Shown piece after piece: positions 31,231 to 64,000 of a stretch of 64,000 nt of DNA. The notes beneath the pieces are model-generated. The model made no database searches and was not told where the DNA came from. It saw only the letters and a list, made by a program, of their open reading frames with translations. The translations under genes and the position numbers were made by a program. The stretch covers positions 14,651 through 78,650 of the forward strand of contig JBDRPD010000001.1 of NCBI GenBank assembly GCA_043827405.1, read 5' to 3'. Source of the DNA: Elusimicrobiota bacterium (GTDB lineage: Bacteria; Elusimicrobiota; Elusimicrobia; UBA1565). Position 1 is the first letter of the stretch. The number at the start of each line of letters is the position of its first letter.

Positions 31231-32724
31231 ATGCCTATCGCCGCGCTGCTGACGGCCCTGCTGACGGCGGCCGCAGCCGGCGTTTCCGGCGGCGCGTTCG
31301 ACGACTCCAACACCTATACCGAGCAGGCGCGTGCCGCGCTGCGGGCGGGAGACCTCCAGTCCGCGGTCGACCGCACGGGACAAGCGCTGGAGCTTTATCC
31401 CCGGAACGCCGAGGCCTACCGCGTTAGGGCTTCGGCCTTCAATGCGCAGGAGCGCTACAGCGAGGCGGAGATCGCCGCCCATGCGTCCCTGCGCCTGGAG
31501 CCGCGCAGCTCCTACGCCAATAATGAGCTGGCCTGGGCGCTGCTCCATCTGCGGCGCTACGCGGAGGCGGCGGAAAGCGCGTCGCGGTCGATCAGCGGCC
31601 GGCCCGACGGCGCGCAGGCTTATGCGCTGCGCGCCATGGCGCATGAAGGGCTCGGCCTCGGGAAGGAGTCGCTCGCCGATCTGCAGAAGGCCGCGGATCT
31701 GGATCCGCTCCGGCATGGGCAAAGCCTGCAAATCGTGCGCGAGGGCGGCTCGCTGCTCGGCGCCGGCAAGCGGCAGGTCTCGGAAGCGGCTTATGCCGTC
31801 GGGGCGGCGGCGCTGGTGCTGGTCGCGTTTGTCTTATGGGCGCTTTTTCGCAAATCCGCTTCCGCCGCGCGGCAGAAAGAAGAGGCCGCGGTGGAGGTGC
31901 GCGCGCCGCCGCCGCCGGGCCTCGAGGCCGGCGGCCTGATCGCCGGCCGGTACCAGCTCGTCCATATCATCGGCCGCGGCGGCATGGGGCAGGTATGGGA
32001 AGCGCGCGATACGTCGCTTGACCGTCCCGTGGCGGTCAAGGAGTTCTCGCGCGAGCTGGGTGAGCGCGGCTCGCAGCTGCGCGGGCTGTTCGTCCAGGAA
32101 GCGAAGACGGTGGCGGCCTTGAAGCACCGGCATATCGCCGACATCTACGAGATTCTGGACAGCCCGGAAGGGCTGTATATGATCTTCGAGTTCGTGCGCG
32201 GCCGGACCGTGCAGCATATCCTGGCGGAGAGAAAGACGCTCCCGGTTCCCGAGATCCTTACGGTGCTGCGGCCGGTATGCGAGGCGCTGGAATACGCGCA
32301 TCAGCACGGCGTCGTGCACCGCGATCTCAAGCCGTCCAATATAATGGTGGACGAACAGGGCTTTATCAAGCTGCTGGATTTCGGCATCGCCCGGCACCTG
32401 GGAGCGGCCGTCGAGCAGGAGAGCGCCGGAGCCGCGGTTCCCGGCGCGTCGCCGCTGCGTCTGGCGCATACGCGGACCGTCGTCGGCACGCCGGGCTATA
32501 TGCCGCCGGAGGCCGCTGCGGGAATCATCAGCCCCGCCGCCGATGTCTACGCGCTCGGCGTCTGCTTCTACGAAATGCTGACCGGGAATATCCCGCCCTC
32601 GCCGTTTCCGGGCGGGGTGTCTCCCGGGGTGGACGCGCTCATGGCGCGCTGCGTGCATCCGGACTACCGGTCCAGAATACACTCAGCCGGGGAGTTTCGG
32701 GCGATGCTGGAGCGGCTGGCTTAG
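31231..32724 (+). CDS. Receptor-like Ser/Thr protein kinase: signal peptide, TPR, TM helix, intact kinase
   Basis: Start ATG 31231. GRGGMG, VAVK, QEAK, HRDLKPSN, DFG, GTPGYMPPE and DVYALG. Confidence 0.92.
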   Translation: MPIAALLTALLTAAAAGVSGGAFDDSNTYTEQARAALRAGDLQSAVDRTGQALELYPRNAEAYRVRASAFNAQERYSEAEIAAHASLRLEPRSSYANNELAWALLHLRRYAEAAESASRSISGRPDGAQAYALRAMAHEGLGLGKESLADLQKAADLDPLRHGQSLQIVREGGSLLGAGKRQVSEAAYAVGAAALVLVAFVLWALFRKSASAARQKEEAAVEVRAPPPPGLEAGGLIAGRYQLVHIIGRGGMGQVWEARDTSLDRPVAVKEFSRELGERGSQLRGLFVQEAKTVAALKHRHIADIYEILDSPEGLYMIFEFVRGRTVQHILAERKTLPVPEILTVLRPVCEALEYAHQHGVVHRDLKPSNIMVDEQGFIKLLDFGIARHLGAAVEQESAGAAVPGASPLRLAHTRTVVGTPGYMPPEAAAGIISPAADVYALGVCFYEMLTGNIPPSPFPGGVSPGVDALMARCVHPDYRSRIHSAGEFRAMLERLA

Positions 32725-34151
32725 TTTTTACAGGCGTCGTTCATCTGGCGGCCTTGACCCGCGCAGTCGATGGGCACTGAGCTGTCGCCGCCGCGCAGAT
32801 CCGCGCAGGCGGCGCCGATGGCCGCGCCGTGCGTGTTGGCTTTGTCGCAGTAAGAAGTCACTACGGCGACTTTCTGCGCCAGCGTACTTTTGCTTCTTTG
32901 CCAACGGCGTCTCGAAGCGCCGCAGTTGAAGGCCAGGCAGTCCATCAAGGCGTTCCAGAAATCATGCTTCTTGTCGACGCAGTCGCGGATCTGCGCCTGC
33001 GCGACCTTGATCGCCTCGCCCATGCTGTCGAGGGCTTCCTGCTGCGGCGTCTTGTGCGCTTCCGTGGCATCGGTGCATTTCTTGATCTTGCGCTCCTGCT
33101 CTTCAGCCTGCTCTTTGAGCGCCTCGACGTCGCCGGTGCCCGGCAGGGTGCCGCCGCCGCCCATGCCCTGCAGGGAGTCTTTGCTGCCGGGTTCGCGGCC
33201 GCCGTCAAATACCAGGCCGGCCGTGTCCTTCATCAGCGTGCCGCCCGCCTCTTCGGTTTCGCTGGAGCCTTGTGCGGCATGGCTGAAGGCCTGGGCCACG
33301 GTAAGCTGGTACATCACCGTGGACTCGGCGCTCGGCGGTTGGGCGAGCGCTTTCTGGTCGCCGAGGAACTTGCGCGAATTGCGCATCTCGTTGGAGCTGC
33401 CGTGCCTGCCGCCGGTCTTTTGCCCCTTGCCCGCTCCCGGCGCCTGCATATTGCGCAAAGTTTTGTCGACCATGCCGTCGCCCAGATTAACGGGCTTGGC
33501 CTTTACTCCGTCCCGTTTCACCAGCAGGCCGGGGTCCATCATGATATTTGAGTGCTCGCCGGCTCCCGAGCCGCCGCCCGCGCCGGAGTGGTCGCCGGCG
33601 CCGCCGCCTGAATGGCGGATGGACTCGGCGAAGGCCGTATTGACCAGCCCTTCGACCAGCGAGCCTTCATCGACCGGCATCGCGTCGCCGGCCTTCTTCG
33701 CGTCTTCCGGCGTCATGACGCCCTTGATCGACTTGCCGCGTTCCTTGCCGACGCCGTCGTAGGTATACTGGCGCTCATCCTCCATCAGGTAGGCGCCCGA
33801 TACCATCTTGACGCGCGAATGCTTGGGGTTCGGCTTATAGTTGTTCATCGCGGCCAGGCGGCGGCGGATATAGCCGGGGACGCCCTGGTACATCTGGTTG
33901 AGCGCTTCCTGATACGCCTTGAGCTCCACGCCTTCCTGCTTGTTCCTATTGAGAAGCGCCGTGACGCCCAGCTTCTCGGCGACATAGGAGACGCCGGGAA
34001 TCTTGAGGACGACGGAAGGCTTCATGGCGAACAGAATGAGCGCGAGGGAGGCGACCACGACGACGGGACCGGAGCTTCGTCCTTGGCGGAAAGTGAAAAG
34101 CACCGCGGCCAGAAATCCCTTTTTCCTATTTTTTTCCAGGAATTTGCTCAT
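32721..34151 (-). CDS. Membrane-anchored Gly-rich hypothetical protein with a Cys-rich helical C-terminus
   Basis: N-terminal hydrophobic segments after 'EKNRKKG', Gly-rich middle, coiled coil, 8 Cys in the last ~120 aa. AAGGAG and a promoter lie upstream. Confidence 0.7.
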   Translation of the reverse strand: MSKFLEKNRKKGFLAAVLFTFRQGRSSGPVVVVASLALILFAMKPSVVLKIPGVSYVAEKLGVTALLNRNKQEGVELKAYQEALNQMYQGVPGYIRRRLAAMNNYKPNPKHSRVKMVSGAYLMEDERQYTYDGVGKERGKSIKGVMTPEDAKKAGDAMPVDEGSLVEGLVNTAFAESIRHSGGGAGDHSGAGGGSGAGEHSNIMMDPGLLVKRDGVKAKPVNLGDGMVDKTLRNMQAPGAGKGQKTGGRHGSSNEMRNSRKFLGDQKALAQPPSAESTVMYQLTVAQAFSHAAQGSSETEEAGGTLMKDTAGLVFDGGREPGSKDSLQGMGGGGTLPGTGDVEALKEQAEEQERKIKKCTDATEAHKTPQQEALDSMGEAIKVAQAQIRDCVDKKHDFWNALMDCLAFNCGASRRRWQRSKSTLAQKVAVVTSYCDKANTHGAAIGAACADLRGGDSSVPIDCAGQGRQMNDACKN

Positions 34152-34173
34152 GGCCGTCTAATACTCCTTTTTC

Positions 34174-34207
34174 AGTATAGACCCGGCCCCTGGACCCGTC
34201 AAGGGCC
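34174..34207 (-). promoter_or_regulatory. sigma70 promoter with GGCCC abutting the -35
   Basis: On the - strand: GGCCC-TTGACG-17 nt-TATACT. Confidence 0.7.
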
Positions 34208-34216
34208 TTCCTCAAA

Positions 34217-34296
34217 GGCCTAATATTTTTTAGGCCGATTAACCAGGTTATTAAGGCTTTTTGACCCATGCAGAAAAGCGGCAGGGCGGCTAGAAT
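34217..34296 (+). promoter_or_regulatory. Conserved promoter architecture, copy 1
   Basis: GGCCTA-N8-TAGGCC-N24-TTGACCCATGC-N19-TAGAAT, 8 nt before the ATG. Confidence 0.75.
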
Positions 34297-34304: not shown

Positions 34305-37300
34305 ATGAACTTGCGCTGGCCGCCAGCTCCGCCCGGACTGCTTCGGAAGTGCCTCGCTTCCGCCGTCGCCGCCTCCCTGCTGGTAACCCAGCAGGGATTT
34401 TTCTTTTATGAGGCGATGGCCGCGCAGTTCGTCGCGCCGAAGGTCGGCGCGGCCGGCATGGGAACCGGCAATGCCGCGGCCGGCGCCGGCGCCGCCGCCA
34501 AGGTGCCCGGCATCCGGCTTGATAATTTCGGCCTGAATCTCTCGGGAGTCAATGCCGCCTCGGTGCTGCCGGCGAATACCGCGATCAACTCTGTCGCGCC
34601 CCAGCTCTCATCCGTCTTGTCGAGCCCGCATGCTCAAACCGTCACCGCGGAAGCGCCCGGTTTGCCGGCCGGCGTGAAGCAGGTCGCGGTCACGCCGAGC
34701 AAGGATATTGAACCGGCGAAAACCGCGGTCTCGCTGCGCGCGGGACTCTCCCAGCTCGGAAGCGCCCTGGTCAAGCCGGCGCGCGGCAAGCGCTCCGGGA
34801 TTCTTGGACGATTCTTCGACCAGGGGAAAAAGCATGACGGCTCCCCCGCTCCGCTCGGGGTCGGCGGTGCCGCGCGCCGGATGACGGGCCTCAGGCCCGG
34901 CGCGGACTTTAGCGTCGATCATTACCAGCGGCTAAAAGAACTCAAGCAGGTCCTGGGCGAAGGAACGCCCGAGGGTGCGGGCTGGATCCGCGCCTTCCGC
35001 TTCCGCGACCCGCAAAACGGCTGGCGCACCGCGCGCTCCGCCGGGCTGGAGGGCTTTTTCTTCACCAAGATCGAGCATGAGCAGACCTGGGGCGGGCTGA
35101 TCTCGTCCGGGCAGCTCGGAGACTACTTCAACTATCTCGACGCTTTGCTGACGCCGGTCGCCTGGACGGCGGACATTCGCCGCGAGCTGGCGGCGCTGCG
35201 CGACGACGCGTCCGTGCCGCTGGTGGAGAAGAACGATCGCCTCAACAAGCTCCTTATCCGTACCTTAGATAGGCTGCGGGCGGAGCTCAAGGAGCTCGAT
35301 AAGGCGCAGTGGGGGCGCAGCGCTCATACCTACGCCATTTTCTCGCGCGCCTACAACCGTTTGCGGCCCGGGAAGAATTTCTTCGATTCCCTCGACGATG
35401 AGGAACTGGCGCGCATCCGCGAGGAGGTCCAGGTCGACCAGCTGTGGCTGCTCGACATCTTCGAGATCGGCGACGTCAAGCGCTGGGGCACCGGCGGCGG
35501 CTCGCCCTACGCCATCAAGGGGTACCGGAAGATAAAGGAAGAGCTGGGCGGCGCGGAGGCTTTCGGCCGCTTCGTGCAGCGCGCGCATGCGCTGGGCTTC
35601 AAGGTCCGCACCGACTTTATCCCGAACCATACCTCGCTTGACAGCGAGCTGGCGCAGCGGCACCCCGAGGCCTTTATTCATCTCCTGCCGCCCCAGCATC
35701 TGTCCGATGACGAGATCTGGGCGCAGACGCCGCGCGAGGCGCAGGGGAACCGTCATCCCAACTTTTACCTGATCAAGACGCGAAGCTACCCGGGACGGGA
35801 GGGAATCGAGACCAAGGTTCTGATCCACCATCCGGTGTCCGACTTCGGGCTGTGGATCGACATGGGACAGATCGACTACAGCCAGAAGACCGCGCGCGCC
35901 TGGTTCATCGAGCAGGCCATGCACCTTTTCGGCGACAAGGGGGTCGACTCCATCCGGCGCGACATGGCCTACTACGTCATTAACGAGAACTACTACGACC
36001 GCTGGCTGAATATCCTGGAGGGAGAAAAGAACGGCGCCGGGGGCTGGGTGCGCGAAGCGCTGGAGCGCACGATCCGCGAGTTCCGCGAGCGCCGCGCGGC
36101 GCTCAACGGCGCCGAGGTGCTCGAGGAATTGACCGATACGGTGAAGCGCCGCTACCCGTCGGCGGTCATGGACGATGAGGTCTATGCCTTCTTCACCGGC
36201 ATGAGCCGCCTGGGGGCCGACGGCATCTACGGCAAGAACACGCAGGACGCGGAGATGGGGCAGTTCGGCCTCTTCGACGCCCTGAAGAGCTTCAACGCGG
36301 GCGCCATCCGCCGGGCCCTGCGCAACAACTTCTTCCGCTTCTGGCAGAAAGGCGGCGCCAGCACGGTGAACTTTGTCGGCAACCACGACGAGGCGAATCC
36401 CGTTGATGTTTTCGGGGTGCGCTTGCGGGCGGCGGCCGCCATGGCGCTCTTGGGCGGGCCGATTTTGACCTATAACGGCTTCGAGCTCGGCACCGGCCAG
36501 CGCGAGATGGTGGGCGACCTGCCGAACTCGGTCGACCGCAACAAGGCCATCCCGTTCGATGTGCCGGTGATGATTCGCTGGGAGACCGTCAACCGGGAGA
36601 ACCGGCTCTTTATCCGGGATCTGCTGCGGGCGCGCCGGCGCAATATCGGCTTGTTTGAGAACGGCGCGGCGTCCGTGCTCGAGCCCTATCAAGACACCCC
36701 GATCGTGGCCTGGTCGGCGAGCCGCCGCGAGGCCGGCCGGCAGGAGACCCTGCTCGTCGCCGGGAACTTTAATCATGATTGGGCCTGGGGGCACTTCAAG
36801 TTCAGCGCGCCGATCCTCGGCGAGTTCGGCGCCTTCCGGCCGCGCGCCGACCGGAACTACATCCTGCGCGACGCCGTGCACCGGGGCGAAGACGGCCGGC
36901 CGCTGACCTTCGAACGCACCGGCAAAGAGCTGCAGGAACAGGGGCTCTTCGTGCACCTGGCTCCCGGCGACGCGCATATCTTCGAGGTCGAAGAGCTCGA
37001 TCCGAGCGCTCCGGCGACCGGGCCGCCTGCCCGCTCGGTCATCAGCCGCCTGCGCGACGCCGCCGTCAGCGGCATCGAAGAGCCGCTGGCCTTCAAGTTT
37101 ACCGGCATCCGCGAGGAGCTCTGGGGACCGCACCATGAAGCGAGGAAGCCGCAGACCTGGGATGCCCTGACCAAATGGCTCACCGACTCGGCCATCCTCG
37201 CCTTCCTGCCGCTGCAGGTGCCGCAGATCATCAAGAACTTCCTGCTGATCTCCGCCGGAACGCTGGCGCCGATCTCGATTCTTCCGTGGATGGGCTATAC

Positions 37301-38096
37301 GACGGGAATTCTCGGCAATATGCTGCTGCTCTCCTATTTCGTCTCCAAGAAAGAGGCGGGGGCCGCCCGGGTGCAGGCGGTCGGCGTAATCACCAGCGGC
37401 ATCGTGCTGGCGCAGATATTCTACGCCGGCTTCATGCCGGCATTCGCTTTTTGGGGCATCGCGGCGATGATGGCGGGCGGGCTGACGCTGAACCTGCTGA
37501 AGTACCTGGGCGTCTTCAACGGCAATATCTGGAAGGCGTGGACCATGATCAGCGGACTGACCGGGCTGGGAGTGCTGCCCACCGTGTTATGGTCGACCTT
37601 CATGCCGCAGATGTCGGTTTGGCCGGCGGTGGTGACCCTGGCGGGAGGACTCATCTTCCTCCTGCTGCAGCGGCTCGGCAAGCTTCCCAAGGGACTGGAG
37701 AACACCTGGTCCAAGCTCTCGGCCTGGACGGCGACCATGCTCTTTATGTTCGGCCCCATCGCCCAGCTGGTCAGCAACTTCGCCAATCCCGCCAATATCG
37801 CGGGGCTCTCGCTGCTCACCCTCATGCTGGCGACCGCGGGCAATGCCTTGATGCTGCCCCGCGCGATCCTGACCAAGGACCGCATCTGGCTCACCGGGAG
37901 CTTGTGGGCGGTGGCGATGGGCGGCTGGGCGGTGATGCTCAGCATGCTGCTTTACGGCGCCGTCTCGCCGCTGTTCTTCGCGGGTTTTTCCGTCATTCTG
38001 CCGGTCTACCTGGCCTTCATTATCCGCCAAGCCATGAAGCATCACGGGGCGACTTTCCGCGAGCTCCTGCGCTCGCTGGTTAAAGGCGGCGCCTAA
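34305..38096 (+). CDS. Leader-tagged GH13 alpha-amylase-family enzyme fused to a MEX1-like maltose transporter domain
   Basis: GH13 motifs GSPYAI, DFIPNH, DSIRRDMA (nucleophile), DEVY and NHDE. The C-terminal ~310 aa are multi-pass, with 'WD.LT...FL.LQVPQII.N', 'PWMGYTTGILGNMLLLSYF', 'WTATMLFM', 'GNALMLPRA' and 'D.IWLTGSLWA', matching recalled plant MEX1 motifs. Confidence 0.85.
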   Translation: MNLRWPPAPPGLLRKCLASAVAASLLVTQQGFFFYEAMAAQFVAPKVGAAGMGTGNAAAGAGAAAKVPGIRLDNFGLNLSGVNAASVLPANTAINSVAPQLSSVLSSPHAQTVTAEAPGLPAGVKQVAVTPSKDIEPAKTAVSLRAGLSQLGSALVKPARGKRSGILGRFFDQGKKHDGSPAPLGVGGAARRMTGLRPGADFSVDHYQRLKELKQVLGEGTPEGAGWIRAFRFRDPQNGWRTARSAGLEGFFFTKIEHEQTWGGLISSGQLGDYFNYLDALLTPVAWTADIRRELAALRDDASVPLVEKNDRLNKLLIRTLDRLRAELKELDKAQWGRSAHTYAIFSRAYNRLRPGKNFFDSLDDEELARIREEVQVDQLWLLDIFEIGDVKRWGTGGGSPYAIKGYRKIKEELGGAEAFGRFVQRAHALGFKVRTDFIPNHTSLDSELAQRHPEAFIHLLPPQHLSDDEIWAQTPREAQGNRHPNFYLIKTRSYPGREGIETKVLIHHPVSDFGLWIDMGQIDYSQKTARAWFIEQAMHLFGDKGVDSIRRDMAYYVINENYYDRWLNILEGEKNGAGGWVREALERTIREFRERRAALNGAEVLEELTDTVKRRYPSAVMDDEVYAFFTGMSRLGADGIYGKNTQDAEMGQFGLFDALKSFNAGAIRRALRNNFFRFWQKGGASTVNFVGNHDEANPVDVFGVRLRAAAAMALLGGPILTYNGFELGTGQREMVGDLPNSVDRNKAIPFDVPVMIRWETVNRENRLFIRDLLRARRRNIGLFENGAASVLEPYQDTPIVAWSASRREAGRQETLLVAGNFNHDWAWGHFKFSAPILGEFGAFRPRADRNYILRDAVHRGEDGRPLTFERTGKELQEQGLFVHLAPGDAHIFEVEELDPSAPATGPPARSVISRLRDAAVSGIEEPLAFKFTGIREELWGPHHEARKPQTWDALTKWLTDSAILAFLPLQVPQIIKNFLLISAGTLAPISILPWMGYTTGILGNMLLLSYFVSKKEAGAARVQAVGVITSGIVLAQIFYAGFMPAFAFWGIAAMMAGGLTLNLLKYLGVFNGNIWKAWTMISGLTGLGVLPTVLWSTFMPQMSVWPAVVTLAGGLIFLLLQRLGKLPKGLENTWSKLSAWTATMLFMFGPIAQLVSNFANPANIAGLSLLTLMLATAGNALMLPRAILTKDRIWLTGSLWAVAMGGWAVMLSMLLYGAVSPLFFAGFSVILPVYLAFIIRQAMKHHGATFRELLRSLVKGGA

Positions 38097-39175: not shown

Positions 39176-39255
39176 GTCCTAATAAAATTTGGGTCCAATT
39201 CCTGTGAAATGCGGTCTGGTTGACCCATGCGTATTCGCTGTTTTCCCAATAAGAT
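39176..39255 (+). promoter_or_regulatory. Conserved promoter architecture, copy 2
   Basis: GTCCTA-N8-TGGGTC-N24-TTGACCCATGC-N19-TAAGAT, 7 nt before ATG 39263. Confidence 0.75.
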
Positions 39256-40575: not shown

Positions 40576-40655
40576 GGCCTATTATTTTTTGGGTCCTATT
40601 TCATCCGAATCAGACCTTGTTGACCCATGCGGGCCCGGCGCTTCGCGGTTAATAT
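40576..40655 (+). promoter_or_regulatory. Conserved promoter architecture, copy 3
   Basis: GGCCTA-N8-TGGGTC-N24-TTGACCCATGC-N19-TAATAT, before GTG 40661 / ATG 40664. Confidence 0.75.
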
Positions 40656-46833: not shown

Positions 46834-46835
46834 GC

Positions 46836-51049: not shown

Positions 51050-51063
51050 AAGCATAGAAAATA

Positions 51064-51092: not shown

Positions 51093-51167
51093 AGCAAGCC
51101 TGTCCGGCATTTATTGGACACTAGATGATAAAACATGGACGCTTTTGCGCCCATGGGGGATTTATTA

Positions 51168-54668: not shown

Positions 54669-54676
54669 AGAGACGC

Positions 54677-55417
54677 ATGCTCTGGGGGGTTCTTTCCGAC
54701 ATCCACTCAAACTACGCGGCGCTTGACGCCGTTCTTAAAGCTCTGGAGCAGCGCGGAGCGCGGAGCTTCATCTGCTGCGGCGACGTGGTCGGCTACGGCC
54801 CGGAGCCTAATGAGGTCGTCGAGCGCATGGCGGAGCTGCCGTCTCTGCGCTGCGTTCGGGGCAACCACGATTTGGCGGTTTTAGGGCGGATGGATATTTC
54901 CTGGTTCAACGCGCCGGCGAAAGCGGCCGTGATGTACGCCCGTGAAGTGCTCAAGAAAGAGAACCTGGCCTGGCTCAAGGAGCTGCCGCCGGTGGTGGAA
55001 GATGAGAACTTTACGGTGGTGCACGGCTCGCCGCGCAACACCGCCGAGGAGTATCTGGTGACCGTGCAGCAGTTTCACGATAACTGCGCGTACTTCAAAA
55101 CCTCGCCCTGCTTCGTCGGGCACAGTCATCTGCCCGTCTGTTTCCTCATGAGAGAACCGGTGTCCTATGTCGAGGCGGGAACGCTCGGCGAGAACCAGGA
55201 ACTGCGCACCCCGGAGGGAACGCGCAGCGTGATCAACCCGGGCTCCGTCGGCCAGCCGCGGGACCAGGACAACCGCTCCGCCTGCGGCGTCTACGACGAC
55301 CAGCGCCGCACCTTCACGCTGTATCGTGTGCCCTACGATATAGCCTCGACGCAGCAAAAGATCATCAAGGCAGGGATTCCGGAATTCCTGGCCGCCCGCC
55401 TCGACTACGGTCAGTAA
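54677..55417 (+). CDS. Calcineurin-like metallophosphoesterase
   Basis: SDIHSN, GDVVGYG, GNHD, HGSP, GHSH and NPGSVGQPRD. Confidence 0.93.
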   Translation: MLWGVLSDIHSNYAALDAVLKALEQRGARSFICCGDVVGYGPEPNEVVERMAELPSLRCVRGNHDLAVLGRMDISWFNAPAKAAVMYAREVLKKENLAWLKELPPVVEDENFTVVHGSPRNTAEEYLVTVQQFHDNCAYFKTSPCFVGHSHLPVCFLMREPVSYVEAGTLGENQELRTPEGTRSVINPGSVGQPRDQDNRSACGVYDDQRRTFTLYRVPYDIASTQQKIIKAGIPEFLAARLDYGQ

Positions 55418-55530: not shown

Positions 55531-56727
55531 ATGGTATTTATGCGTCGGTGCGTTGATGCTTTATTGAGGCTGCTTCGCAATAGGCGAGGGCAGCTGGCCA
55601 TCCCGTCTCTGTTTGTGCTCCCGTCGCTGTTTTTGTTTGTCTACTTGATCTTCGAGACGGCGAAGGTTTCCCGCGAGAAGATCCGCCACCAGTTCGCGAT
55701 CGACGCGGCGGCCTTTATTGAGATGACCAACTATTCGGACTTCCTCAACCGTTCGGCCTACGTCAACGGGGCTTTTCCCCAGCGCATCTTCGAAGAGGGC
55801 TTCTACGGGACCCCGATCGAGACCAAGAAGAATACTTCCGGCACGCTGCCCAATAATATGGGGATGGCAGGTGACCGGCTTTACGAGATTTTGTACAAGA
55901 ACGGAGCGTTTCCCGCGGATCCGGATGAGCCGGCGAAGGCCTCGCTCGACGGACGCCCGAGCTGGTTTCTCAAGTTCAAGGGGCCGGGGGCCGGCGGCAA
56001 GAACGACTCCAGCCCGACGCTTGACCCGCGGCTCAATCTGCTGACTATGGACGACGCGCTCGATTACTGGATCAGCTGGGACGACGCGCAGGACATCTAC
56101 AAGCTCTACGTGCAGATATATCAGCTGCTGGGCTCGGTCGAAGACGCGCAGTACTCGGTCTTCTGCCGCCTGACCGGGGCGAGCGGCTGTCCGAACTCCG
56201 ACGGCAAGCATAACTTTTTCCGCAAGTCCTACTGGCTTAATACCAATGATCCGATCGACGACGCTTTTGACGGGGCGCAGGCCTTCAATAAATATCCGTT
56301 CAACCCGCGTCCGCACTGCATCCAGGAGATCATGATTCACGGCAATAAGCCGACCAACAACGCCTTCCAGCCCTATCAGATCTGGGCGCCCAGCGATCCG
56401 GTGCAGATGCCCAAGACCATTGAGAACTGCGTGGAGGGCGACGGCCTGTTCCAGATGGAATCAATTGACCCGGGACATCTGCGCGCTATGGCGGAGCCGC
56501 ATGAGGATTCGCCATGGCCCGGTTACCCGGTGGTCCAGCATTGGGACGTGGAGCAGTCGGTGCTGGGCAGCAACTATTTCAACGTTAATTTCCACAACAT
56601 GATACGCTGTCAGGACGGCGGCGGTCCCTGCGTGCACGCGACGGTGGGCTTGTCCAACCCCTCCGGGCCCGGCAAGGGGCTGTGGCCCAATCCGACGCCC
56701 AAGTTCCAGACGAGGCTATATCCATGA
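55531..56727 (+). CDS. TadG-like pseudopilin (Tad N-terminal domain)
   Basis: 'RRGQ' prepilin-type site, hydrophobic helix and 'Q.AIDAAA' motif. Cys-containing exported domain. Start may be 55540. Confidence 0.75.
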   Translation: MVFMRRCVDALLRLLRNRRGQLAIPSLFVLPSLFLFVYLIFETAKVSREKIRHQFAIDAAAFIEMTNYSDFLNRSAYVNGAFPQRIFEEGFYGTPIETKKNTSGTLPNNMGMAGDRLYEILYKNGAFPADPDEPAKASLDGRPSWFLKFKGPGAGGKNDSSPTLDPRLNLLTMDDALDYWISWDDAQDIYKLYVQIYQLLGSVEDAQYSVFCRLTGASGCPNSDGKHNFFRKSYWLNTNDPIDDAFDGAQAFNKYPFNPRPHCIQEIMIHGNKPTNNAFQPYQIWAPSDPVQMPKTIENCVEGDGLFQMESIDPGHLRAMAEPHEDSPWPGYPVVQHWDVEQSVLGSNYFNVNFHNMIRCQDGGGPCVHATVGLSNPSGPGKGLWPNPTPKFQTRLYP

Positions 56728-57212
56728 GATCAAGAAACACGCTGCTCAAATTGCGCAACGCGCGCGGCGGTCAGGCCACGACCGAGGTCGTGCTGCTGCT
56801 GCCGCTGTTTATGTTTTTCCTCTTCGCTTTCTCCAAGACTTTCGCGCTTCTGGTTCTGGTGCAGAAGATGGAAGTGGCGTCCTATTACGCGGCGCGACGC
56901 TGGCAGCTCGAGTCGCACCGCAACGTCCAGTACGAGCCCTGGGACAACAACGATCTATGCTTCGACATCGAGGACAAAGTGAAGGAGTACCTCGGCTTCG
57001 GCACCGCCGCCCAGCAGTTCCTGGGTCTGCAGTCGGTCTCCGTCTGCCCGGTGCAGCGCACCCAGGTGTGGAACGTCGTCACGCTGACCGTCAATACCAA
57101 GCCGGTCAATATCCCGCTGTTCCAGAACGACGGTTTCGAGTTCGAGGTGGTGAAGTATGTGCCGAACCGGGACCGGCCGATCGCCTTCGTGCTCCCGGGT
57201 TTGTCACCCTGA
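56724..57212 (+). CDS. TadE-like pseudopilin
   Basis: Start ATG 56724 (ATGA overlap). 'RGGQATTEVVLLLPLF...ASYYAAR' is a G/Q..E+5 prepilin motif followed by AAR. Confidence 0.82.
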   Translation: MRSRNTLLKLRNARGGQATTEVVLLLPLFMFFLFAFSKTFALLVLVQKMEVASYYAARRWQLESHRNVQYEPWDNNDLCFDIEDKVKEYLGFGTAAQQFLGLQSVSVCPVQRTQVWNVVTLTVNTKPVNIPLFQNDGFEFEVVKYVPNRDRPIAFVLPGLSP

Positions 57213-57257: not shown

Positions 57258-58988
57258 ATGCTACGAGCTAAATTCAAACTTTTCTGGCAGCGCTACTGGC
57301 TCTGGATCGTCATCGTCATCGGCGGCGCGTTCGCGCTGCTGATGCCTCTGTGGTACCTCTCCCGCATGGAGGAGAGCATCCGGCGCTACATCGTCGGCAT
57401 CAACATCGCGTCGCTGCCTTTCGGCGTCCTGCAGACCATGATCTTCGTCGGTTTCCTGTACCTGCTGCAGTTCGGCGGCGGCTTCGCCCGTTTCAAGAAG
57501 TCGGCCGTAAAGGCCGGCGCGGTCAAAGTCGGGTTTTCCGACGTCATCGGCCTGAGCGAGGCCAAGCGGGAAGCGATTGAGGTCGTGCAGCTCATTAACG
57601 ACCGCTCCAAGCTGCGCCAGGTCGGGGGCAGCATCATGCGGGGCCTGCTGCTGCTGGGACCGCCGGGCTGCGGCAAGACGCTGCTGGCCAAGGCGATCGC
57701 AACCGAGGCGAAGATCCCTTTCCTCTCGGTGGCGGGCTCCGAGTTCGTCGAGATCTTCGTCGGCGTCGGGGCGTCCCGCGTGCGCAAGCTTTTTAAGCAG
57801 GCGCGGCAGTACGCCGAGGCCTATGGCGGCTGCATCATATTCATCGACGAAATCGAGGTCTTGGGCCGTAAACGGGTATTCTACGACGCCTTCGGCGGCT
57901 CCTCGGAGGGCAATTCGACGCTCAACCAACTGCTGGTGGAGATGGACGGCCTGACCGATTCGGACGCCCATGTCGTGGTTATGGGGGCGATGAATGCGGC
58001 CGAAGACGTCCTCGATGCCGCTCTTCTGCGTCCCGGACGCTTCGATCGCAAGCTGCAGATAACGCGGCCGAACCTCGAGGAGCGCCAGGAGCTCTTCGAG
58101 TACTACGCGCGCAAGATTAAAATGGAGCCGCAGATGGATTTCGCGCGCTTGGCGCGCAAGTCGGTGCACAAGACGCCGGCCGACATCGAGAACCTTCTTA
58201 AGGAAGCGGCGCTCATCGCCACCCGCAACAAGCATGATCTCGTCGGCTATAAGGACATCTCCGAGGCGATCGAGCGCATCGCGCTCGGGATAGCCCACAA
58301 GCTCAATATGACCGACCGTGAACGGGAGATGACCGCCTATCATGAGGCGGGTCATCTGGTCATGCTCTTTTTGACCCATCCGACCGACGACGTGTTTAAG
58401 GCCTCGATCATTTCGCGCGGCGGCGCCCTCGGGGTCGTCCACCATAACCCCGCGGAAGAGATTTATTGTCATGACTCTAATACGCTGCTCGCCAATGTCC
58501 GCGTCGCGCTCGCCGGGTACGTCGCGGAAAAGTTTAAGTACGGGGTTACTTCCGACGGCGTAGGCTCCGATTTCGCCAGCGCGATGCAGCATGCTCATAC
58601 CATGGTCTGGCGTTTGGGCATGGGGCCCAATGGCTATGTCGGCGACTACACCGTGGTGCCCAGTGAACAGCTCTCCGATGGGATCAAGGCCCAGCTCAAT
58701 GCCGGCACCCACCGGGTGCTCAAAGATGCGATGGCGGACGTGGAGAAAACCCTTAAGGCCGAATGGCGCATCGTCGAACGTTTTGTCCAAGAGCTCCTGC
58801 GCAGGGACGAGCTCGACTACGACGAGATCGCCGCGATATTCAAGGAGTTCGGCAAGGAGCCGCCCAAGCGGCTGTTCGGCTATTCCAATCCCGTAGCCGT
58901 GCCGCCTGTCGCCGGCCAGACGCAGTCGCATCTAAAGCCGCCCTTCGCGTCTCCAGACATCCCGGAGCCGCCCACACCTTCCCGCTGA
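57258..58988 (+). CDS. FtsH-like AAA+ zinc metalloprotease (M41)
   Basis: Two N-terminal TM helices with a very short loop. GPPGCGKT, FVG pore loop, IFIDE, LLRPGRFDR and HEAGH. Confidence 0.92.
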   Translation: MLRAKFKLFWQRYWLWIVIVIGGAFALLMPLWYLSRMEESIRRYIVGINIASLPFGVLQTMIFVGFLYLLQFGGGFARFKKSAVKAGAVKVGFSDVIGLSEAKREAIEVVQLINDRSKLRQVGGSIMRGLLLLGPPGCGKTLLAKAIATEAKIPFLSVAGSEFVEIFVGVGASRVRKLFKQARQYAEAYGGCIIFIDEIEVLGRKRVFYDAFGGSSEGNSTLNQLLVEMDGLTDSDAHVVVMGAMNAAEDVLDAALLRPGRFDRKLQITRPNLEERQELFEYYARKIKMEPQMDFARLARKSVHKTPADIENLLKEAALIATRNKHDLVGYKDISEAIERIALGIAHKLNMTDREREMTAYHEAGHLVMLFLTHPTDDVFKASIISRGGALGVVHHNPAEEIYCHDSNTLLANVRVALAGYVAEKFKYGVTSDGVGSDFASAMQHAHTMVWRLGMGPNGYVGDYTVVPSEQLSDGIKAQLNAGTHRVLKDAMADVEKTLKAEWRIVERFVQELLRRDELDYDEIAAIFKEFGKEPPKRLFGYSNPVAVPPVAGQTQSHLKPPFASPDIPEPPTPSR

Positions 58989-58992: not shown

Positions 58993-59112
58993 GGGCCTTT
59001 TGGTCCCAAGCGAAATGCCGCATATTCATAAAGTCCTTATAAAATAATCATTTTCATATAGGCCCTTGGGGGCGCTCAGTCCCTTGACAAACCATGGGGT
59101 GGTCTTTACACT
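58993..59112 (+). promoter_or_regulatory. Palindromic sites and sigma70 promoter of the Gly-rich array
   Basis: GGGCC-N5-GTCCC at 58993. GGGGC-N5-GTCCC-TTGACA-17 nt-TACACT at 59069-59112. Confidence 0.72.
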
Positions 59113-59136: not shown

Positions 59137-60204
59137 ATGCCTGCGATTGTCGGCCGCTCAAGCGGAGCATATAAAGGATACGGGTGGATGCTGTTGGTCG
59201 CCGCGCTCCTTGTGGGGTGGTGGCTGACGGCGCCCATGATGGGCGGAATGGGTTCTGATTCCGTTGATATTCCGTTGACCGCCGAGGTCAACGAGCAGAG
59301 CCTGCGCGCGCTCGATCCCGTTGACAATCCCCAGGGCGCGCCCGGCGCCTTGGTCGGCGCGCAAGCGGCGGACAGCGCGCATTCCGGTACCGAAGGAAGC
59401 CTCCTGACGTCATCGCTCTATCAGGCTCCCGGCGCCGCCGCGGGAGAGCCCATTACCAAAGAGCGCGCCGAAGAAATCAAAGAGGAAGGCGGCGCCCTGG
59501 CGGAGGCCATGGCGCGGGTCGCCGACGCCGGCAAGGCGCCCGACAATTCCTGGGGCGGTAAAGCCGCGCGCTCCGGCATGTCCGGTCCCCGGGCGCAGTT
59601 CGGCAAGGTCGGCGCGACGCGCGAAGGCGGCAGCGGGTCGACGAGCGCGCAGTTCGCCGTGGTCAAGAAGGCGTTCGGGACCGGCGGCGATCCGGGCCTC
59701 GATATCGCCCCGTCCGGCGGCTTCGCGCAAGGCGCGCGCCGCGGGATGCAGTCGGCGGGCGGCGGGGTGAGCCGGGGGCTCAACGAACTCAAGAAGATGA
59801 ACGAGGTCAGCCTGGCCGCGCTCAAGGGGAAAGACGAGACGGCGGCCGGCGGCGGCCGCCGGACTTTTGATGCCAGCGGCAGCCGCGGCGGCAAATCGGC
59901 GATGGACGCTTTGGCCTCGGCGGGAGGTTCCGCCGGCATAGGCAACGACGCCGGGGTGCCGCAGAACCTTAAAGCCAATGATCCCAAGCAGCTGAACAAA
60001 AAGGAATTTAAGCCGCCGGAGGTCAATGCCGGCGAGGTGAAGAACAGCGACAATCAGCGCTACATGGAGCAGCAGATGATGCAGATGATGCTCCAAGCCG
60101 TGCTGACCGGAATTATGGGACCGATGGGCGGCGCGGTCGGCGGCATGATGAGCATGGCGATGCAGATGGACGGTCCGTCTGACGGAAATATGAACAAGCT
60201 GTAG
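59137..60204 (+). CDS. Gly-rich membrane-anchored hypothetical protein with a Met-rich hydrophobic C-terminus
   Basis: ATG 59137 with AGGGG SD. N-terminal TM; C-terminus 'MMQMMLQAVLTGIMGPMGGAVGGMM'. Confidence 0.75.
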   Translation: MPAIVGRSSGAYKGYGWMLLVAALLVGWWLTAPMMGGMGSDSVDIPLTAEVNEQSLRALDPVDNPQGAPGALVGAQAADSAHSGTEGSLLTSSLYQAPGAAAGEPITKERAEEIKEEGGALAEAMARVADAGKAPDNSWGGKAARSGMSGPRAQFGKVGATREGGSGSTSAQFAVVKKAFGTGGDPGLDIAPSGGFAQGARRGMQSAGGGVSRGLNELKKMNEVSLAALKGKDETAAGGGRRTFDASGSRGGKSAMDALASAGGSAGIGNDAGVPQNLKANDPKQLNKKEFKPPEVNAGEVKNSDNQRYMEQQMMQMMLQAVLTGIMGPMGGAVGGMMSMAMQMDGPSDGNMNKL

Positions 60205-60223: not shown

Positions 60224-61690
60224 ATGGATAATAAAATTTCACACAAGCCCCAGTTGATGCGCGATGAGGAGAAAAAGGGAGGCGGCTTCATCGCTTCTCT
60301 TATGGCCAAGCTCGGCCTTGGCGGCACCGCCGCCGGCGGGGCGGCCATCGGCGGCGCGGGCGTCGGGGCCGGGATATCTTCCTCCGGTGCGGCCGCGACC
60401 GGCATCGGCCTGCTCTTGTCCAAGACCGGGATAGTGGCGCTTCTCACTATGGGGACCGCGGCGGCGGTGGGCATCAACGCTCTGCGCTCGCCTTCTGTGA
60501 GCATGCCGAAAGCCGGCGGCAGCGTGTTTCGCACCCAGGACGCGGCATCCGCCGGCGACTCCATGGCGAGCACGGGCGCAGCCGGCGCGGCCGGCGAGGA
60601 GGGCGACGCGGCGGCGGGCGGGGTGTCCAATTCGCTCGACTATTTCAATAAGGCGAACCAGGGGGCGGTGCAGGACCCGACCAAATTGGGAGAAGAAGGC
60701 GTCGCCGTAGCCGATGCGCCGGCGGAGGATGCCGAGGAGGTTTCCTCCGGCGTCGAAGCTCCGGATAACAGCAACAGCAAGGGCGGCGCCGCCGGTGCGA
60801 CGCGGCCGCAGATGATCAAGGCCACCAAGTCCTTCAAGGGCAAGTCCGAGAAGTCGACCAATGTTACGCTCCTGGCGCAGGCCGGAGCCGCGGGGGGAAT
60901 CGGCGGCGGCTTCGACAAGACCTACAAGAAGACGGCCGCGATGTCGACCGGAAACCGCAGCGCGCGCGGCGCCCGGCAGGCGCAGTCGATCAGCCGCGGC
61001 CGCGGCACCTCGGCGATCAACCAAGCCAAAGCCGTGCGCAAGAGCAACCGCAATGCGCTGCTGGGTAAAAATTTATCGAGCGCCAGCGCCGGACTGCCTT
61101 ATGACAGCGCCGGCGCCCCCAGCGGCAGCATCGGCGGACCGGCGGGGGTCAGCAATGCCGGCGTGGGCACCGGCGGGGCCGGCGTGGGCGACGCGCGCTT
61201 CAAGCCCAATCGCTCGCTCGATACGCGCGAGCTGCCCGAGCCCAAGAAAGTCGAGAAGACCAAGAACTCGACGCCGTACCAGGAGACCATGCAGCATGCG
61301 ATGCTGGCGGTGATGGCGGCCGGGGCGCTGCTCATGATCGCCGGCATGATCCGCAAGCAGAACGATCCGAAGCTGACGCCTCTGGTCCAGCTGTTCGCGG
61401 GGCTGGCGATAGCGGCGGCGGGCTTGGCGGTCATGAAGGGCATGGAGCTGATGAATGCCTGGGGCCAGAACATGCAGGGCATGATGTTTATGGGCATGGG
61501 CGGCATCATCATGATCCAGGCGGCGATGATCCTTATGAAGCCCGAGTCCGCCGAGGCGGCGCAAGCGGGCGTGGACGCTAAATCGGCGGCGGCCAAAACA
61601 GCGACTGAACAGAGCTTAAAGGGTGCGTCAACGACAGTGACGCCAGAAGTGACGCCGGCGAAGGTGATTAATAATCCGACTAATCCGTGA
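60224..61690 (+). CDS. Gly/Ala-rich membrane protein, array member
   Basis: ATG 60224 with GGGGAG SD. 'DEEKKGGG', hydrophobic Gly-rich segment, 'NSL...ANQG', 'TPYQ', then three C-terminal hydrophobic helices. Confidence 0.78.
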   Translation: MDNKISHKPQLMRDEEKKGGGFIASLMAKLGLGGTAAGGAAIGGAGVGAGISSSGAAATGIGLLLSKTGIVALLTMGTAAAVGINALRSPSVSMPKAGGSVFRTQDAASAGDSMASTGAAGAAGEEGDAAAGGVSNSLDYFNKANQGAVQDPTKLGEEGVAVADAPAEDAEEVSSGVEAPDNSNSKGGAAGATRPQMIKATKSFKGKSEKSTNVTLLAQAGAAGGIGGGFDKTYKKTAAMSTGNRSARGARQAQSISRGRGTSAINQAKAVRKSNRNALLGKNLSSASAGLPYDSAGAPSGSIGGPAGVSNAGVGTGGAGVGDARFKPNRSLDTRELPEPKKVEKTKNSTPYQETMQHAMLAVMAAGALLMIAGMIRKQNDPKLTPLVQLFAGLAIAAAGLAVMKGMELMNAWGQNMQGMMFMGMGGIIMIQAAMILMKPESAEAAQAGVDAKSAAAKTATEQSLKGASTTVTPEVTPAKVINNPTNP

Positions 61691-61746: not shown

Positions 61747-63555
61747 ATGAGCGAGCAAAACAAGGACGATAAAGAACGCAAAGGCGTCGGCGCCGGCATC
61801 GGCACGGGCGGCGGCAGCGGCGGAGCGGCCCCTTCCTGGATGTCGGGAGCGGCGAAAGTCGGCGGCGGCTCTCCGGGCGGTTTGCTGCGCAGTGCGGCCG
61901 GCAAGGGTGGCTTCCTTCTTAAGATGAAGTCCGTTCTATTGTCCAAGGCTTTGATGTTTACCACCGCCACCGGCGGCATGCTTCTGGGCGGCAGCGGCCT
62001 GATGGATATGAATCAGCGCGGCTTCGGCGTGGAGCCGGTCCAGCAGGAGGTCCGCGCCTTCAGCGGCCGATCGAGCTCCGGTTCATCGTCAGCGGCGAAT
62101 GTCCCCGGGGCCGAGCCCTACGGCAAGAGCGCGCTGGAACTGGCCCGGGAGGCCAATGAGGGCGCTTATGGTCAGACGCCGGCGGCGACGGCGGACGCTC
62201 CCAAAGCGACGGAGGGGGCTGAGGAAGATGACGCGGAAGCTCCCGAGGCCAGCGGCGCGGCGGCCGGCATGGATCCCAATGCCATGGCCAACGGCATGCT
62301 GGAGGGGGCGCTCGGCGGGGAGGAGGATTCCAAAGCCAAGCAGGCCCTGGGCAAGAAGTTCGGGAACCTCAGTTCGAATATCGGCGGCGGCGGCACCAAG
62401 GCGCAGCTCTCCGGCGGCGGCGGCATGTCGGGCGGCATCGGCAAGGACTTTAAGCGCAGCGCGCTGAGCAATAAGCGGCTGCAGGCCATGGCCAGGGACC
62501 AAAAGGCGTCCACGAGCCGGGCCATGCAGTCGGCCAACGTAAAGGGCAATGCGGTTAAGCATGGCAAGTTCAGCGGCGGCGCCAACTCCGCCAAGCTCGA
62601 CAAGATGAATAAGTCGATGAAGGGAGCGAAAGGGATGGGAGGGGCCTCCGAGGCGGCGACCCATACCGCGCAATGGTCCGGCGCCGACGGCGGCGGCCAG
62701 GCGCTCTCGGGCGCGGGCGCGAGCTCTCCCGGTTTCGACGACAATGAAGGCACCGGCGGCGGCGGTCCCGCGGGCAGCGGCAGCGGCGGCGGAGGCGGCA
62801 ACTACAACGACGGCTATGACGACGGCTACGGCGACGGGACCGGCACCCAGGCGCCTCCCGGCGGCAATGTTACGCCGTATCAGCAGATGGTGGATATGGC
62901 GCAGGCGATGATCATGCTGGCGTCGGCGCTGCTGCTTATAGCGGGACTGCTCGGTCTGCTCGGCCGGTCGCTGATGAAATCGATCTATCCGGCGACGGTG
63001 GCCTGGGGCGTACTGATGTATAAGATGGCGAAATTTATCGCCTATGCGGCTTGCGCCTGTGCGGCGATCGCGACTTTGTGCGGTCTCGGCATCATGATGC
63101 AGGGGCAGAGTTTGCAAGGCGGCCTGTTTACGGGGATCGGTGCGCTGCTGACCGGTATCTCGTATTATGCGGCGGAAAGCTATGGCGAAGCCGCGACTGG
63201 CGGTGCTAAGGCTACCGCAGCGGCTAATGTCGCAGCGACTAAGGCCGGGACGGCATTGGGAACGACGGCGAGCAATGCGTCTCTGGCGGGGACGGGGGCC
63301 ATTTCGGGTGCCGGCGGCGCCGCCGCCGGCGGCGGCATGATGTCGGGTCAGGAAGGCTGGGAGGGCGACTACAACGAGGACCAGGGCCTCAACCGCGACG
63401 GTTCGGTCAAGACCAACAATACCTCCTCTCAATCAAGCAGCAGCTCGAGTTCCAGTTCGAGCAGTTCGTCGAGTTCGACGGCGTCCACTTCGCAGTCGAA
63501 CCCGTATACGCAGCCGCAGCAGCCTACCAATCCCAACGACAATACCTACGGTTGA
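61747..63555 (+). CDS. Gly/Ala-rich membrane protein, array member, with a poly-Ser tail
   Basis: AAGGAG SD. 'DDKERKG', 'SAL...ANEG', 'TPYQ', three hydrophobic helices and 'GQSLQGGLF'. Confidence 0.78.
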   Translation: MSEQNKDDKERKGVGAGIGTGGGSGGAAPSWMSGAAKVGGGSPGGLLRSAAGKGGFLLKMKSVLLSKALMFTTATGGMLLGGSGLMDMNQRGFGVEPVQQEVRAFSGRSSSGSSSAANVPGAEPYGKSALELAREANEGAYGQTPAATADAPKATEGAEEDDAEAPEASGAAAGMDPNAMANGMLEGALGGEEDSKAKQALGKKFGNLSSNIGGGGTKAQLSGGGGMSGGIGKDFKRSALSNKRLQAMARDQKASTSRAMQSANVKGNAVKHGKFSGGANSAKLDKMNKSMKGAKGMGGASEAATHTAQWSGADGGGQALSGAGASSPGFDDNEGTGGGGPAGSGSGGGGGNYNDGYDDGYGDGTGTQAPPGGNVTPYQQMVDMAQAMIMLASALLLIAGLLGLLGRSLMKSIYPATVAWGVLMYKMAKFIAYAACACAAIATLCGLGIMMQGQSLQGGLFTGIGALLTGISYYAAESYGEAATGGAKATAAANVAATKAGTALGTTASNASLAGTGAISGAGGAAAGGGMMSGQEGWEGDYNEDQGLNRDGSVKTNNTSSQSSSSSSSSSSSSSSSTASTSQSNPYTQPQQPTNPNDNTYG

Positions 63556-63567
63556 TAGAGCGCAACG

Positions 63568-64000
63568 ATGAGCCCAGCAAACGAAGACGAGAAAAAGGAA
63601 AAGCAAGGCGCCGGGGCGGTGCTGCCGGGCGCGGCGCCGGTCCTGATGAAGTCCGTATCCACCGGCAGCGGCCTGTTCGGCATGGCGGGCGGGGGCTTCA
63701 AGGCGTTTCTGCTGGGAAAGATCGGCATCGCGGCGGCGGCGCTGGGTGTCGGCATGGTGGGAATGGCGGGATATCAGGCGGTCACGCAGAAAAAAACGCC
63801 CGCGGCGAAGCAGGTCCTCGCGGCGGCGCAGGTCGCGCGTCCCGGCTTCGATGTAAGGGAGTCCAAGCGCGACGCGCAGGGCAGTAATTCCTTGGCGCTG
63901 ATGGAGCAGGCCGGACAGGGCGAGATCAATTGGGCCGGCGCCGGCGGCGCGGGTCAGGACGGCGCGGCGGCGGATGCTCCCGCCGGCGAGGGCGAGGGCG
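63568..64000 (+). CDS. Gly/Ala-rich membrane protein, array member (runs off the window)
   Basis: Not in the ORF track; translated by hand: MSPANEDEKKEKQGAGAVLPG...FLLGKIGIAAAALGVGMVG...NSLALMEQAGQG. Same motifs as the two preceding genes. Confidence 0.75.
   Translation, partial: MSPANEDEKKEKQGAGAVLPGAAPVLMKSVSTGSGLFGMAGGGFKAFLLGKIGIAAAALGVGMVGMAGYQAVTQKKTPAAKQVLAAAQVARPGFDVRESKRDAQGSNSLALMEQAGQGEINWAGAGGAGQDGAAADAPAGEGEG

Follow-up and report, generated by a model that had tools for sequence, protein, structure and literature searches.

The window analyzed here, a stretch of 64,000 nucleotides at the end of contig C1 of an Elusimicrobiota genome (G000; 4.33 Mb, 98% complete), encodes proteins that begin with a common N-terminal leader, candidate TadG- and TadE-like pseudopilins, and an array of glycine-rich (Gly) proteins. 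Comparison across this genome and its phylum points to an undescribed, clade-wide class of leader-tagged, cysteine-free, cytoplasm-type proteins, carried beside a Tad-linked operon of putative membrane-active proteins. On balance, we favor the view that the tagged proteins are delivered into another cell, by any route. A more specific version, in which the Tad and Gly proteins deliver this cargo into the cytoplasm and membrane of another cell, there to digest and drain it, is put forward tentatively.

The leader and its cargo

A shared leader on amylases and transporters had been proposed in an earlier note on this DNA, and profile searches bear it out for the proteins encoded at 34305, 39263, and 40664. 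The leader set was built by iterated hidden Markov model (HMM) searches, for which the best reversed-sequence control reached E 0.13. The genome yielded 35 matches at E < 1e-3; the 33 kept at this threshold and six borderline matches make up a set of 39 proteins, and three entries were dropped by hand, namely PilQ (C34), a false positive resembling a lipoprotein (C105), and a duplicate fragment (C92). The tagged proteins range from 420 to 5,433 aa and represent about 3% of the genome (gene starts beyond the window were taken from a crude gene caller). One of them, of 3,018 aa, has only the signal part of the leader, and a composition filter returned 19 further candidates, about 12 of which resemble diverged leaders.

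The leader consists of a signal-peptide-like segment with a conserved Pro-Gly, a near-uncharged Ala/Gly/Pro-rich stretch (8% charged residues versus 21%) that carries an S/T-x-LP motif, and a linker. Its alignment displays the basic n-region, hydrophobic h-region, and AxA-type c-region associated with Sec and signal peptidase I. The PG...AxA pattern is found in 27 of the 39 tagged proteins versus 37 of 511 other signal-like proteins. For comparison, 39 tagged proteins from six relatives were taken from the best hits listed for the leader profile; an AxA-type site follows PG in 38 of these leaders, which were picked by that same profile, and Gln is frequent at +1. A pattern search for the twin-arginine consensus matched none of the genome's 39 leaders. 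The leader looks like a Sec-type, cleavable signal that would be expected to lead to translocation and cleavage. An aromatic-Asp motif at aa 126-200 (22/39 tagged proteins versus 35/338 others here) was rejected as a defining feature because it is present in only 6 of the 39 proteins from relatives. Separately, a second N-terminal motif, FDQG-x-DV-K, lies just past the signal peptide of several small secreted proteins with GGNC promoter sites (G000 C76:2440, C83:191066, C83:188491, C54:105597, C54:33541, and C53:180309).

In a survey of 301 genomes of the phylum, which scored only 17 leader and five Gly candidates per genome, the leader was detected in 40, namely this genome and 39 relatives, most of them with several copies. 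Divergent leaders were sought in five leader-negative genomes and not found. A large protein database returned seven matches, and the two with a named organism are both Elusimicrobia, which is weak evidence on range. The portions of the literature covered by our search, with supplements outside its scope, contain no description of the leader, the Gly family, or a bacterial MEX1.

Pfam and NCBIfam models identify a broad array of enzymes among the 39 cargoes (two ClpA/B, LonB, PPK2, an RNase R-like protein, M3, M28, two M48, two M50, three S8, and Rce1), together with transporters and channels (five to six from the major facilitator superfamily (MFS), SDF, an MsbA-type ABC exporter, and MscS) and Fic, HD-CE, vWA/DUF58, and ATP-grasp proteins; about a third have no match to either collection. 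In the cargo that was checked, both Walker A/B sets of the two ClpA/B proteins and the RNase II acidic motif are kept, and the tagged PPK2 passes the NCBIfam cut-off. Alongside these, the genome encodes paralogues without the tag for Clp, RNase R, PPK2, M3, SDF, ABC, and DUF58. The sampled proteins from relatives are similar in kind, with eight MFS, six S8, three M48, three M50, single ClpB, ABC, SDF, PHO4, and vWA proteins, and 15 without assignment. Judged by family, the cargo would comprise many enzyme and transporter types that normally work in the cytoplasm and need cytoplasmic cofactors. Most of the transporters that could be identified fall into classes that export or leak substrates (MFS proteins resembling H+ antiporters and EntS, MsbA-type ABC, MscS, and MEX1).

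Loss of cysteine sets these proteins apart. Past position 200, cysteine accounts for 12 of 38,713 residues (0.03%) in the tagged proteins of this genome and 37 of 32,095 in those of relatives, compared with 1,640 of 159,876 (1.03%) in cytoplasmic proteins and per-protein means of 0.51% and 0.96% in other signal-peptide proteins and in membrane proteins, respectively. Within membrane helices predicted from hydropathy scales, there are no cysteines among 3,781 tagged residues, 14 among 6,023 in relatives, and 652 among 44,650 (1.46%) in untagged proteins. The two tagged/untagged pairs in the window follow the same pattern, with 0 versus 9 and 0 versus 6 cysteines.

A second feature concerns topology. 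In 12 tagged MFS proteins, whose helix boundaries were assigned manually from a single reference, the loops on the leader side contain 297 Lys/Arg residues versus 16 on the opposite side, and the leader is therefore located on what has to be the cytoplasmic face. A cleavable Sec signal in front would place this face outside. If the proteins stayed in the membrane of the producer, the charge bias, being retained, would clash with a cleaved signal peptide.

The two features bear on where the cargo ends up. One contender, which we regard as unlikely though worth serious attention, keeps the cargo in the producer's own envelope: the enzymes would act in a periplasm that receives the cytoplasm or lysate of prey, ATP and polyphosphate included, and the transporters would lie inverted in the inner membrane, with exporters acting as importers. 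Such an arrangement needs no machinery beyond a cleavable-looking signal peptide, the cysteine loss suits an oxidizing compartment, and periplasmic amylases and proteases are commonplace. Inverted insertion should, however, be opposed by a canonical positive-inside bias that is fully kept, and cysteine is retained both in the helices of ordinary inner-membrane proteins and in ordinary exported proteins of this genome, at the levels given above. An inverted protein in the producer's membrane thus accounts for the cysteine loss and the signal peptide and conflicts with the charge bias. We consider it improbable that the leader is instead a cytoplasmic tether rather than an export signal. The topology clash and the ATP problem would then disappear, and a turn could arise at the conserved Pro-Gly within the hydrophobic segment; a tether accounts for the charge bias only, and leaves unexplained the 30-fold cysteine loss, the signal peptide with its AxA-type site after PG and its frequent +1 Gln, the secreted-type cargo, and the duplicated housekeeping enzymes. 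Export of the whole chain, followed by insertion from inside another cell, would account for cysteine loss, charge bias, and signal peptide alike. The tagged proteins accordingly look built for export past the producer's own inner membrane.

The Tad locus, the Gly array, and the route of delivery

The core Tad genes, expected outside the window, were located on contig C83 (127961-134562), where PF16976, PF00263, PF00437, and two PF00482 matches score above cut-off and correspond to RcpC/CpaB, the RcpA secretin, the TadA(Z) ATPase, TadB, and TadC. A 73-aa gene upstream of tadE/rcpC matches PF16982 (Flp major pilin) at E 1e-6, below cut-off. The two pseudopilin-like genes reported for the window also stand, as candidates. 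The candidate for a large TadG-like pseudopilin (55531..56727, + strand) has no Pfam match and is called from its N-terminus, where a G|Q site resembling a cleavage site and a long helix are present; a paralogue matches PF13400 at E 0.077. Its structure model, with a long N-terminal helix and a pLDDT of 42, is too weak for structure search, and a complex prediction with the C-terminal half of gly2 scored 0.05. The gene has nine relatives, eight of them in Elusimicrobiota metagenome-assembled genomes (MAGs). It is followed by the TadE-like gene (56724..57212, +; PF07811 at E 9.8e-4, below the curated cut-off) and by a second FtsH-like AAA+/M41 protease with an intact HEAGH motif (57258..58988, +), which is conserved between tadE and the Gly array; another FtsH homologue is located on C93. 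Elsewhere in the genome there are three more tadG-like paralogues (C108:66644-84746, C28, and C91:33473-35900), two of them beside Gly-rich genes; by analogy with Myxococcus, this suggests exchangeable tips.

The array of Gly-rich proteins with C-terminal hydrophobic helices that had been described previously comprises four genes at 59137-64000, of which the window contains three in full: gly1 (59137..60204, +), gly2 (60224..61690, +), gly3 (61747..63555, +), and the start of gly4 (63568..64000, +). The end of C1 and C22 overlap over 141 bp, and the array therefore carries on in C22 with more Gly genes and genes of 883, 1,080, and 3,018 aa, then an unrelated gene and a tagged gene of 5,433 aa. 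The two largest products (C22:51959-61015, 3,018 aa; C22:34432-50739, 5,433 aa) are predicted to be exported, end the Gly operon, and have no Pfam match; homologues of the 3,018-aa gene occupy the same place in genome G252. Gly2 combines a basic N-terminus, one hydrophobic helix, a long disordered Gly-rich region, an NxTPYQ motif, and a C-terminal hydrophobic bundle of three to four helices. The bundle is modeled confidently at aa 353-469, with no specific fold: Foldseek returned no match at E <= 1e-3, the top VIA match was to a designed bundle (Z 12.6), and in the ESM Atlas gly2 matched only clusters without names, whereas the 45628 family gave no usable match. Matches to the Gly family number 18 in the genome, some of them fragments, and the family has 602 representatives at E <= 1e-10. 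A detached paralogue, gly0 (32721..34151, - strand), has a basic N-terminal stretch and hydrophobic helix, a Gly-rich middle, and a Cys-rich C-terminus; its homologues lie within the Gly operon in the related loci L001 and L005 and on contig C22 of this genome.

In relatives, the Tad locus physically includes both the Gly array and the pseudopilin-like genes. A single locus in G252 holds rcpC to tadC, a regulator block, tadG, tadE, the FtsH-like gene, Gly genes, and homologues of the 883-, 1,080-, and 3,018-aa genes. Part of this order is also found in G280, G248, L007, and L008, and rcpC, tadG, and Gly matches share one contig in six genomes. Across the same 301 genomes, RcpC was detected in 255, tadG in 166, and Gly genes in 65; among the 39 leader-positive relatives, the corresponding counts are 39, 37, and 31, the last rising to 33-34 with a deeper profile. 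The expectation that the leader occurs only together with Tad and Gly genes is thus borne out for Tad, in that no leader-positive genome lacks RcpC, and fails in part for Gly, since 5-6 of the 39 have no detected Gly gene. Kin are not independent, and the nesting of the leader within Gly and Tad is therefore compatible with, rather than proof of, a shared system. The RcpC gene is present in 92/92 genomes of group f4 and 56/70 of group f16, mostly small (1-2.6 Mb), and the Tad locus is for this reason considered near-universal in the phylum.

The promoter element that had been described as common to all components is less widely shared. T(A/G)GGNC half-sites, often in inverted pairs, are enriched upstream of tagged genes; the inverted GGNC dyad, a motif derived from this same set, is found in 20 of 39 tagged promoters versus 70 of 1,242 others, and a related pattern precedes 28 of the 39 tagged genes sampled from relatives versus 10 of 39 coding controls. 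The dyad also precedes numerous untagged genes, many of them for secreted proteins, which suggests that it marks a wider regulon than the tagged genes. In the window, dyads precede all three tagged genes and the divergent gly0 (34217, 39176, and 40576). The tadG and gly1 genes have only a single GGNCC beside an ordinary -35 box (for gly1, a GGNCC site and then a sigma70-type -35/-10 promoter at 59061..59112, +, conserved in 4/5 relatives), and such single sites occur in 311 of 1,242 background promoters. A scan upstream of the core tad locus, as suggested in the earlier note, found none, and a promoter shared by tadG and the core tad operon was rejected.

The model for delivery starts from what is observed directly, namely a common leader, the families to which its cargo belongs, their loss of cysteine and biased charge, and a Gly operon linked to tad genes, and infers four steps. 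First, the signal peptide would direct the chain through Sec. Second, the chain would remain unfolded in the oxidizing periplasm, which may be why cysteine is absent even from membrane helices. Third, a Tad pilus with a TadG/TadE tip would touch the target cell, and the Gly-rich proteins, via their hydrophobic C-terminal bundles, would form or line an entry path, possibly assisted by the FtsH-like ATPase. Fourth, once in the target, ClpA/B, Lon, the M48, M50, Rce1, S8, and M3 proteases, RNase R, and the amylases would degrade protein, RNA, and glycogen; PPK2 would regenerate ATP from polyphosphate; and the MFS and ABC exporters, MscS, and the MEX1 domain, inserted in normal orientation, would leak the products.

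Several points weigh against this model. The model does not account for how 12-helix proteins would escape lateral release from SecYEG, and the tagged helices are only modestly less hydrophobic than others (median strongest segment -0.34 versus -1.07 in 39 and 161 proteins, a comparison confounded by family). The S8 and M28 proteins, the amylases, and the SDF and PHO4 importers suit an ordinary periplasmic or own-membrane role. With RcpC and tadG as widespread as they are, their co-occurrence with the leader lacks specificity; Gly genes are present in 33 genomes where the leader was not detected; and because of the breadth of RcpC and these 33 genomes, the Tad/Gly route is unproven. In eight tested genomes of group f5 without the leader, the tagged-MFS family was absent and only normal-sized Clp frames were found, with no giant ones. 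Two type IVa/type II secretion system (T2SS)-like loci are also encoded, and the promoters of core tad and tadG depart from the dyad as described above.

Another reading is that the same cargo is delivered by another route, such as the type IVa/T2SS-like loci (C66, C34, and C108), vesicles, or local membrane fusion, with Tad and Gly serving attachment or a separate job. We judge this to be rather unlikely in itself, and note that the cysteine, topology, and export evidence is neutral as to route, that Tad and Gly occur without the leader in groups f4 and f5, that further secretins and PilB-type ATPases are present, and that the core tad genes do not share the dyad. Two observations pull the other way: the Gly operon encodes the 3,018-aa protein, which shares the SPG-type signal, and has the tagged 5,433-aa gene close behind, and genus g12 (two genomes) has no detected leader and no detected Gly gene while keeping RcpC, which amounts to one weak event.

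The alpha-glucan genes and the MEX1-like domain

The tagged genes of the window form an alpha-glucan module. Gly0 and the first tagged gene use one divergent promoter, in an intergenic region with two inverted GGNC dyads (34203..34236, at 34204 and 34217). This gene (34305..38096, +) encodes the leader, a GH13 alpha-amylase-family domain, and, from about aa 950, a MEX1/RCP1-like domain, with no cysteine past the signal peptide. After an untagged Na/Ca exchanger family protein (PF01699; 38151..39161, +), which we consider a bystander, and a dyad at 39176..39195 comes a leader-tagged membrane protein without cysteine (39263..40561, +). A further dyad (40576..40595) precedes a leader-tagged, cysteine-free GH13 alpha-amylase/neopullulanase-like protein (40664..43213, +). 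Downstream lie an untagged GH13 protein with a C-terminal glucodextranase-like module and nine cysteines (43214..45619, +), a putative in-cell counterpart, and an untagged paralogue of 39263 (45628..46833, +; 66% identical over 216 aa) with six. Tagged amylases and untagged copies had been noted in this region, and the two tagged GH13 proteins and one untagged bear this out: PF00128 scores above cut-off in all three, the catalytic Asp motifs RxD and (N/L)HD are present, and both tagged proteins match alpha-amylases in the PDB. Of the two tagged membrane proteins, only 34305 qualifies as a transporter, through its MEX1 domain; 39263 has no Pfam or NCBIfam family.

The maltose-transporter-like C-terminus of 34305 proved to be a MEX1 homologue. 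Over its last 314 aa, identity is 45% with proteins from Chlorella and Bryopsis and 40% with a Sphagnum cluster, one member of which bears the name Root cap 1, and the homology to these named algal and moss hits spans 92-99% of the query (E 1e-55 to 1e-64). The domain is thus a predicted relative of the plant chloroplast maltose exporter, a transporter listed as Plantae-specific in the part of Tyra et al. considered here (PMC2246286). It resembles the plastid MEX1/RCP1 of that study in this 40-45% identity of the membrane domain, and differs in being bacterial, leader-tagged, often fused to GH13, and free of cysteine. Thirteen of the 301 genomes carry it, all leader-positive (12 of the 39 relatives). 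The pairing of tagged amylase and transporter recurs, with fusion to the same GH13 in nine of the 12 relatives; two of the 12 pass the leader profile, six have a variant Ala/Pro/Ser-rich N-terminus, and four show no leader in the fetched DNA.

A tree of 25 MEX1 sequences was obtained from 44 rows by removing seven with long branches or long stems (six Elusimicrobia and one unlabelled) and 12 others, mostly near-duplicates. The green sequences form one clade (94/98) at an unresolved fork with the Elusimicrobia, for whose monophyly p-AU is 0.31 in this reduced tree. Bacterial MEX1 appears not to be nested in the green algae, and neither algal capture nor a bacterial donor is demonstrated. Cyanobacterial MEX1 homologues (P0022-P0024 and P0208-P0219), the named ones from Prochlorotrichaceae, Nodosilinea, and Picosynechococcus, form a clade, and their printed N-termini show no signal-peptide leader.

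That the whole system is dedicated to harvesting starch from an algal or protist host is, in our assessment, highly improbable. The recurrent GH13-MEX1 fusion and the 45% identity to green algal proteins speak for it. Against it, amylases make up two of the 39 cargoes, both within the window, and at E <= 1e-8 none of the 39 sampled from relatives; MEX1 is confined to the 12 leader-positive relatives counted above, and within the fetched flanks of L001 and L003-L006 the amylase cluster was not seen beside the tad block. The proposed host is not supported by the position of bacterial MEX1 outside the green clade or by the samples: groundwater is the origin of both the best-matching sequencing run and a second study that contains a close strain, whose pieces, 500-1,800 bp long, mostly agree at 97-99%. 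In the delivery model, alpha-glucan use figures as a single accessory cargo module, and the alpha-glucan focus of the earlier note is not upheld.

Neighboring genes, known systems, and implications

Between the module and tadG lie NamZ, MltA, GH3, smc, and metallophosphoesterase genes (46967..55417), syntenic neighbors in close relatives whose membership in the system is not shown. The peptidoglycan-recycling genes among them (NamZ, MltA, and GH3; 46967-51049), which are joined by AnmK and a SIS-domain gene at 21801-24816, remain beside smc and tadG in close relatives. At 28776-32724 there are two tandem genes for TPR, transmembrane, and Ser/Thr kinase proteins, and a related kinase follows ftsH in L007. 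At 716-20160, large Fn3/beta-helix/S8 proteins (2,044 and 3,433 aa) adjoin a PorV-like gene and, with a weak CHU_C match, resemble type IX cargo.

Extended signals that mark classes of exported proteins are established for YSIRK-type and SecA2/Y2 signals; TcpF and CofJ are secreted by Tad or type IVb pili, and Legionella and Chlamydia insert membrane effectors in another cell. In distinction from these systems, the genome has a single SecA, no VirB4, and no type III secretion system (T3SS) export apparatus, with zero PF00771 (FHIPEP) matches at 98% completeness. A reading of the Gly-rich proteins as T3SS translocators was weighed on two counts, this export apparatus and a translocator-like fold, for which the gly2 bundle gave only the generic matches described above. 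The pilus-secreted substrates are, to our knowledge, soluble, and none is a polytopic transporter or an AAA+ ring.

The closest likeness is to the Kil (Tad) system of Myxococcus xanthus and its Tip minor-pilin complexes, for which contact-dependent delivery into prey has been proposed in a study that also treats TcpF as a pilus-secreted substrate (Herrou 2025, PMC12075869). Both have a complete Tad core and several large TadG-like minor pilins (four paralogous loci here). Kil, however, acts with a needleless T3SS (T3SS*), whereas FHIPEP is missing here, and the portions of that paper considered describe no cargo leader, Gly array, or FtsH-like partner for Kil. Neither the leader nor the Gly family is described in the sections of a Bdellovibrio review that were compared (PMC13689555), and the main text of a study of groundwater Elusimicrobia (Meheust 2020, 10.1101/765248) is without the terms pili, secret-, predat-, and symbio-. 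Omnitrophota, also a groundwater lineage, encode large signal-peptide membrane or secreted proteins with enzyme domains near pilus or secretion genes; Tad loci and giant proteins are reported and predation proposed in the parts considered of West-Roberts 2023 (bioRxiv 10.1101/2023.11.21.568195), Seymour 2023 (PMC10066038), and 10.64898/2026.06.07.730766. There, a few proteins exceed 10,000 aa; here, about 40 separate proteins share one leader, the longest tagged protein has 5,433 aa, and no C39 or SecA domain matches were found in the cargo.

We raise, as a speculative proposal, that one clade of free-living Elusimicrobia lives by epibiotic predation and, via Sec, a Tad pilus, and a dedicated Gly-rich translocon, supplies its prey with a complete duplicate set of cytoplasmic machines, together with polytopic exporters, by injection. 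It is equally conjectural that the cytoplasm and inner membrane of the prey would thereby become a device for digestion and export. If true, this would represent a delivery route without a described counterpart, in which a signal peptide leads to 12-helix transporters and AAA+ machines being placed in another cell, and would provide a lifestyle for the abundant, uncultured Elusimicrobia of groundwater, as well as a model, open to testing, for nutrient extraction by epibiotic predators. The conflict between signal peptide and canonical topology is amenable to experiment now. Finally, the existence of MEX1 homologues in bacteria raises anew the question of where this transporter, which has been classed as plant-specific, originated, and the plastid MEX1 and one such injected drain may have a common ancestor.

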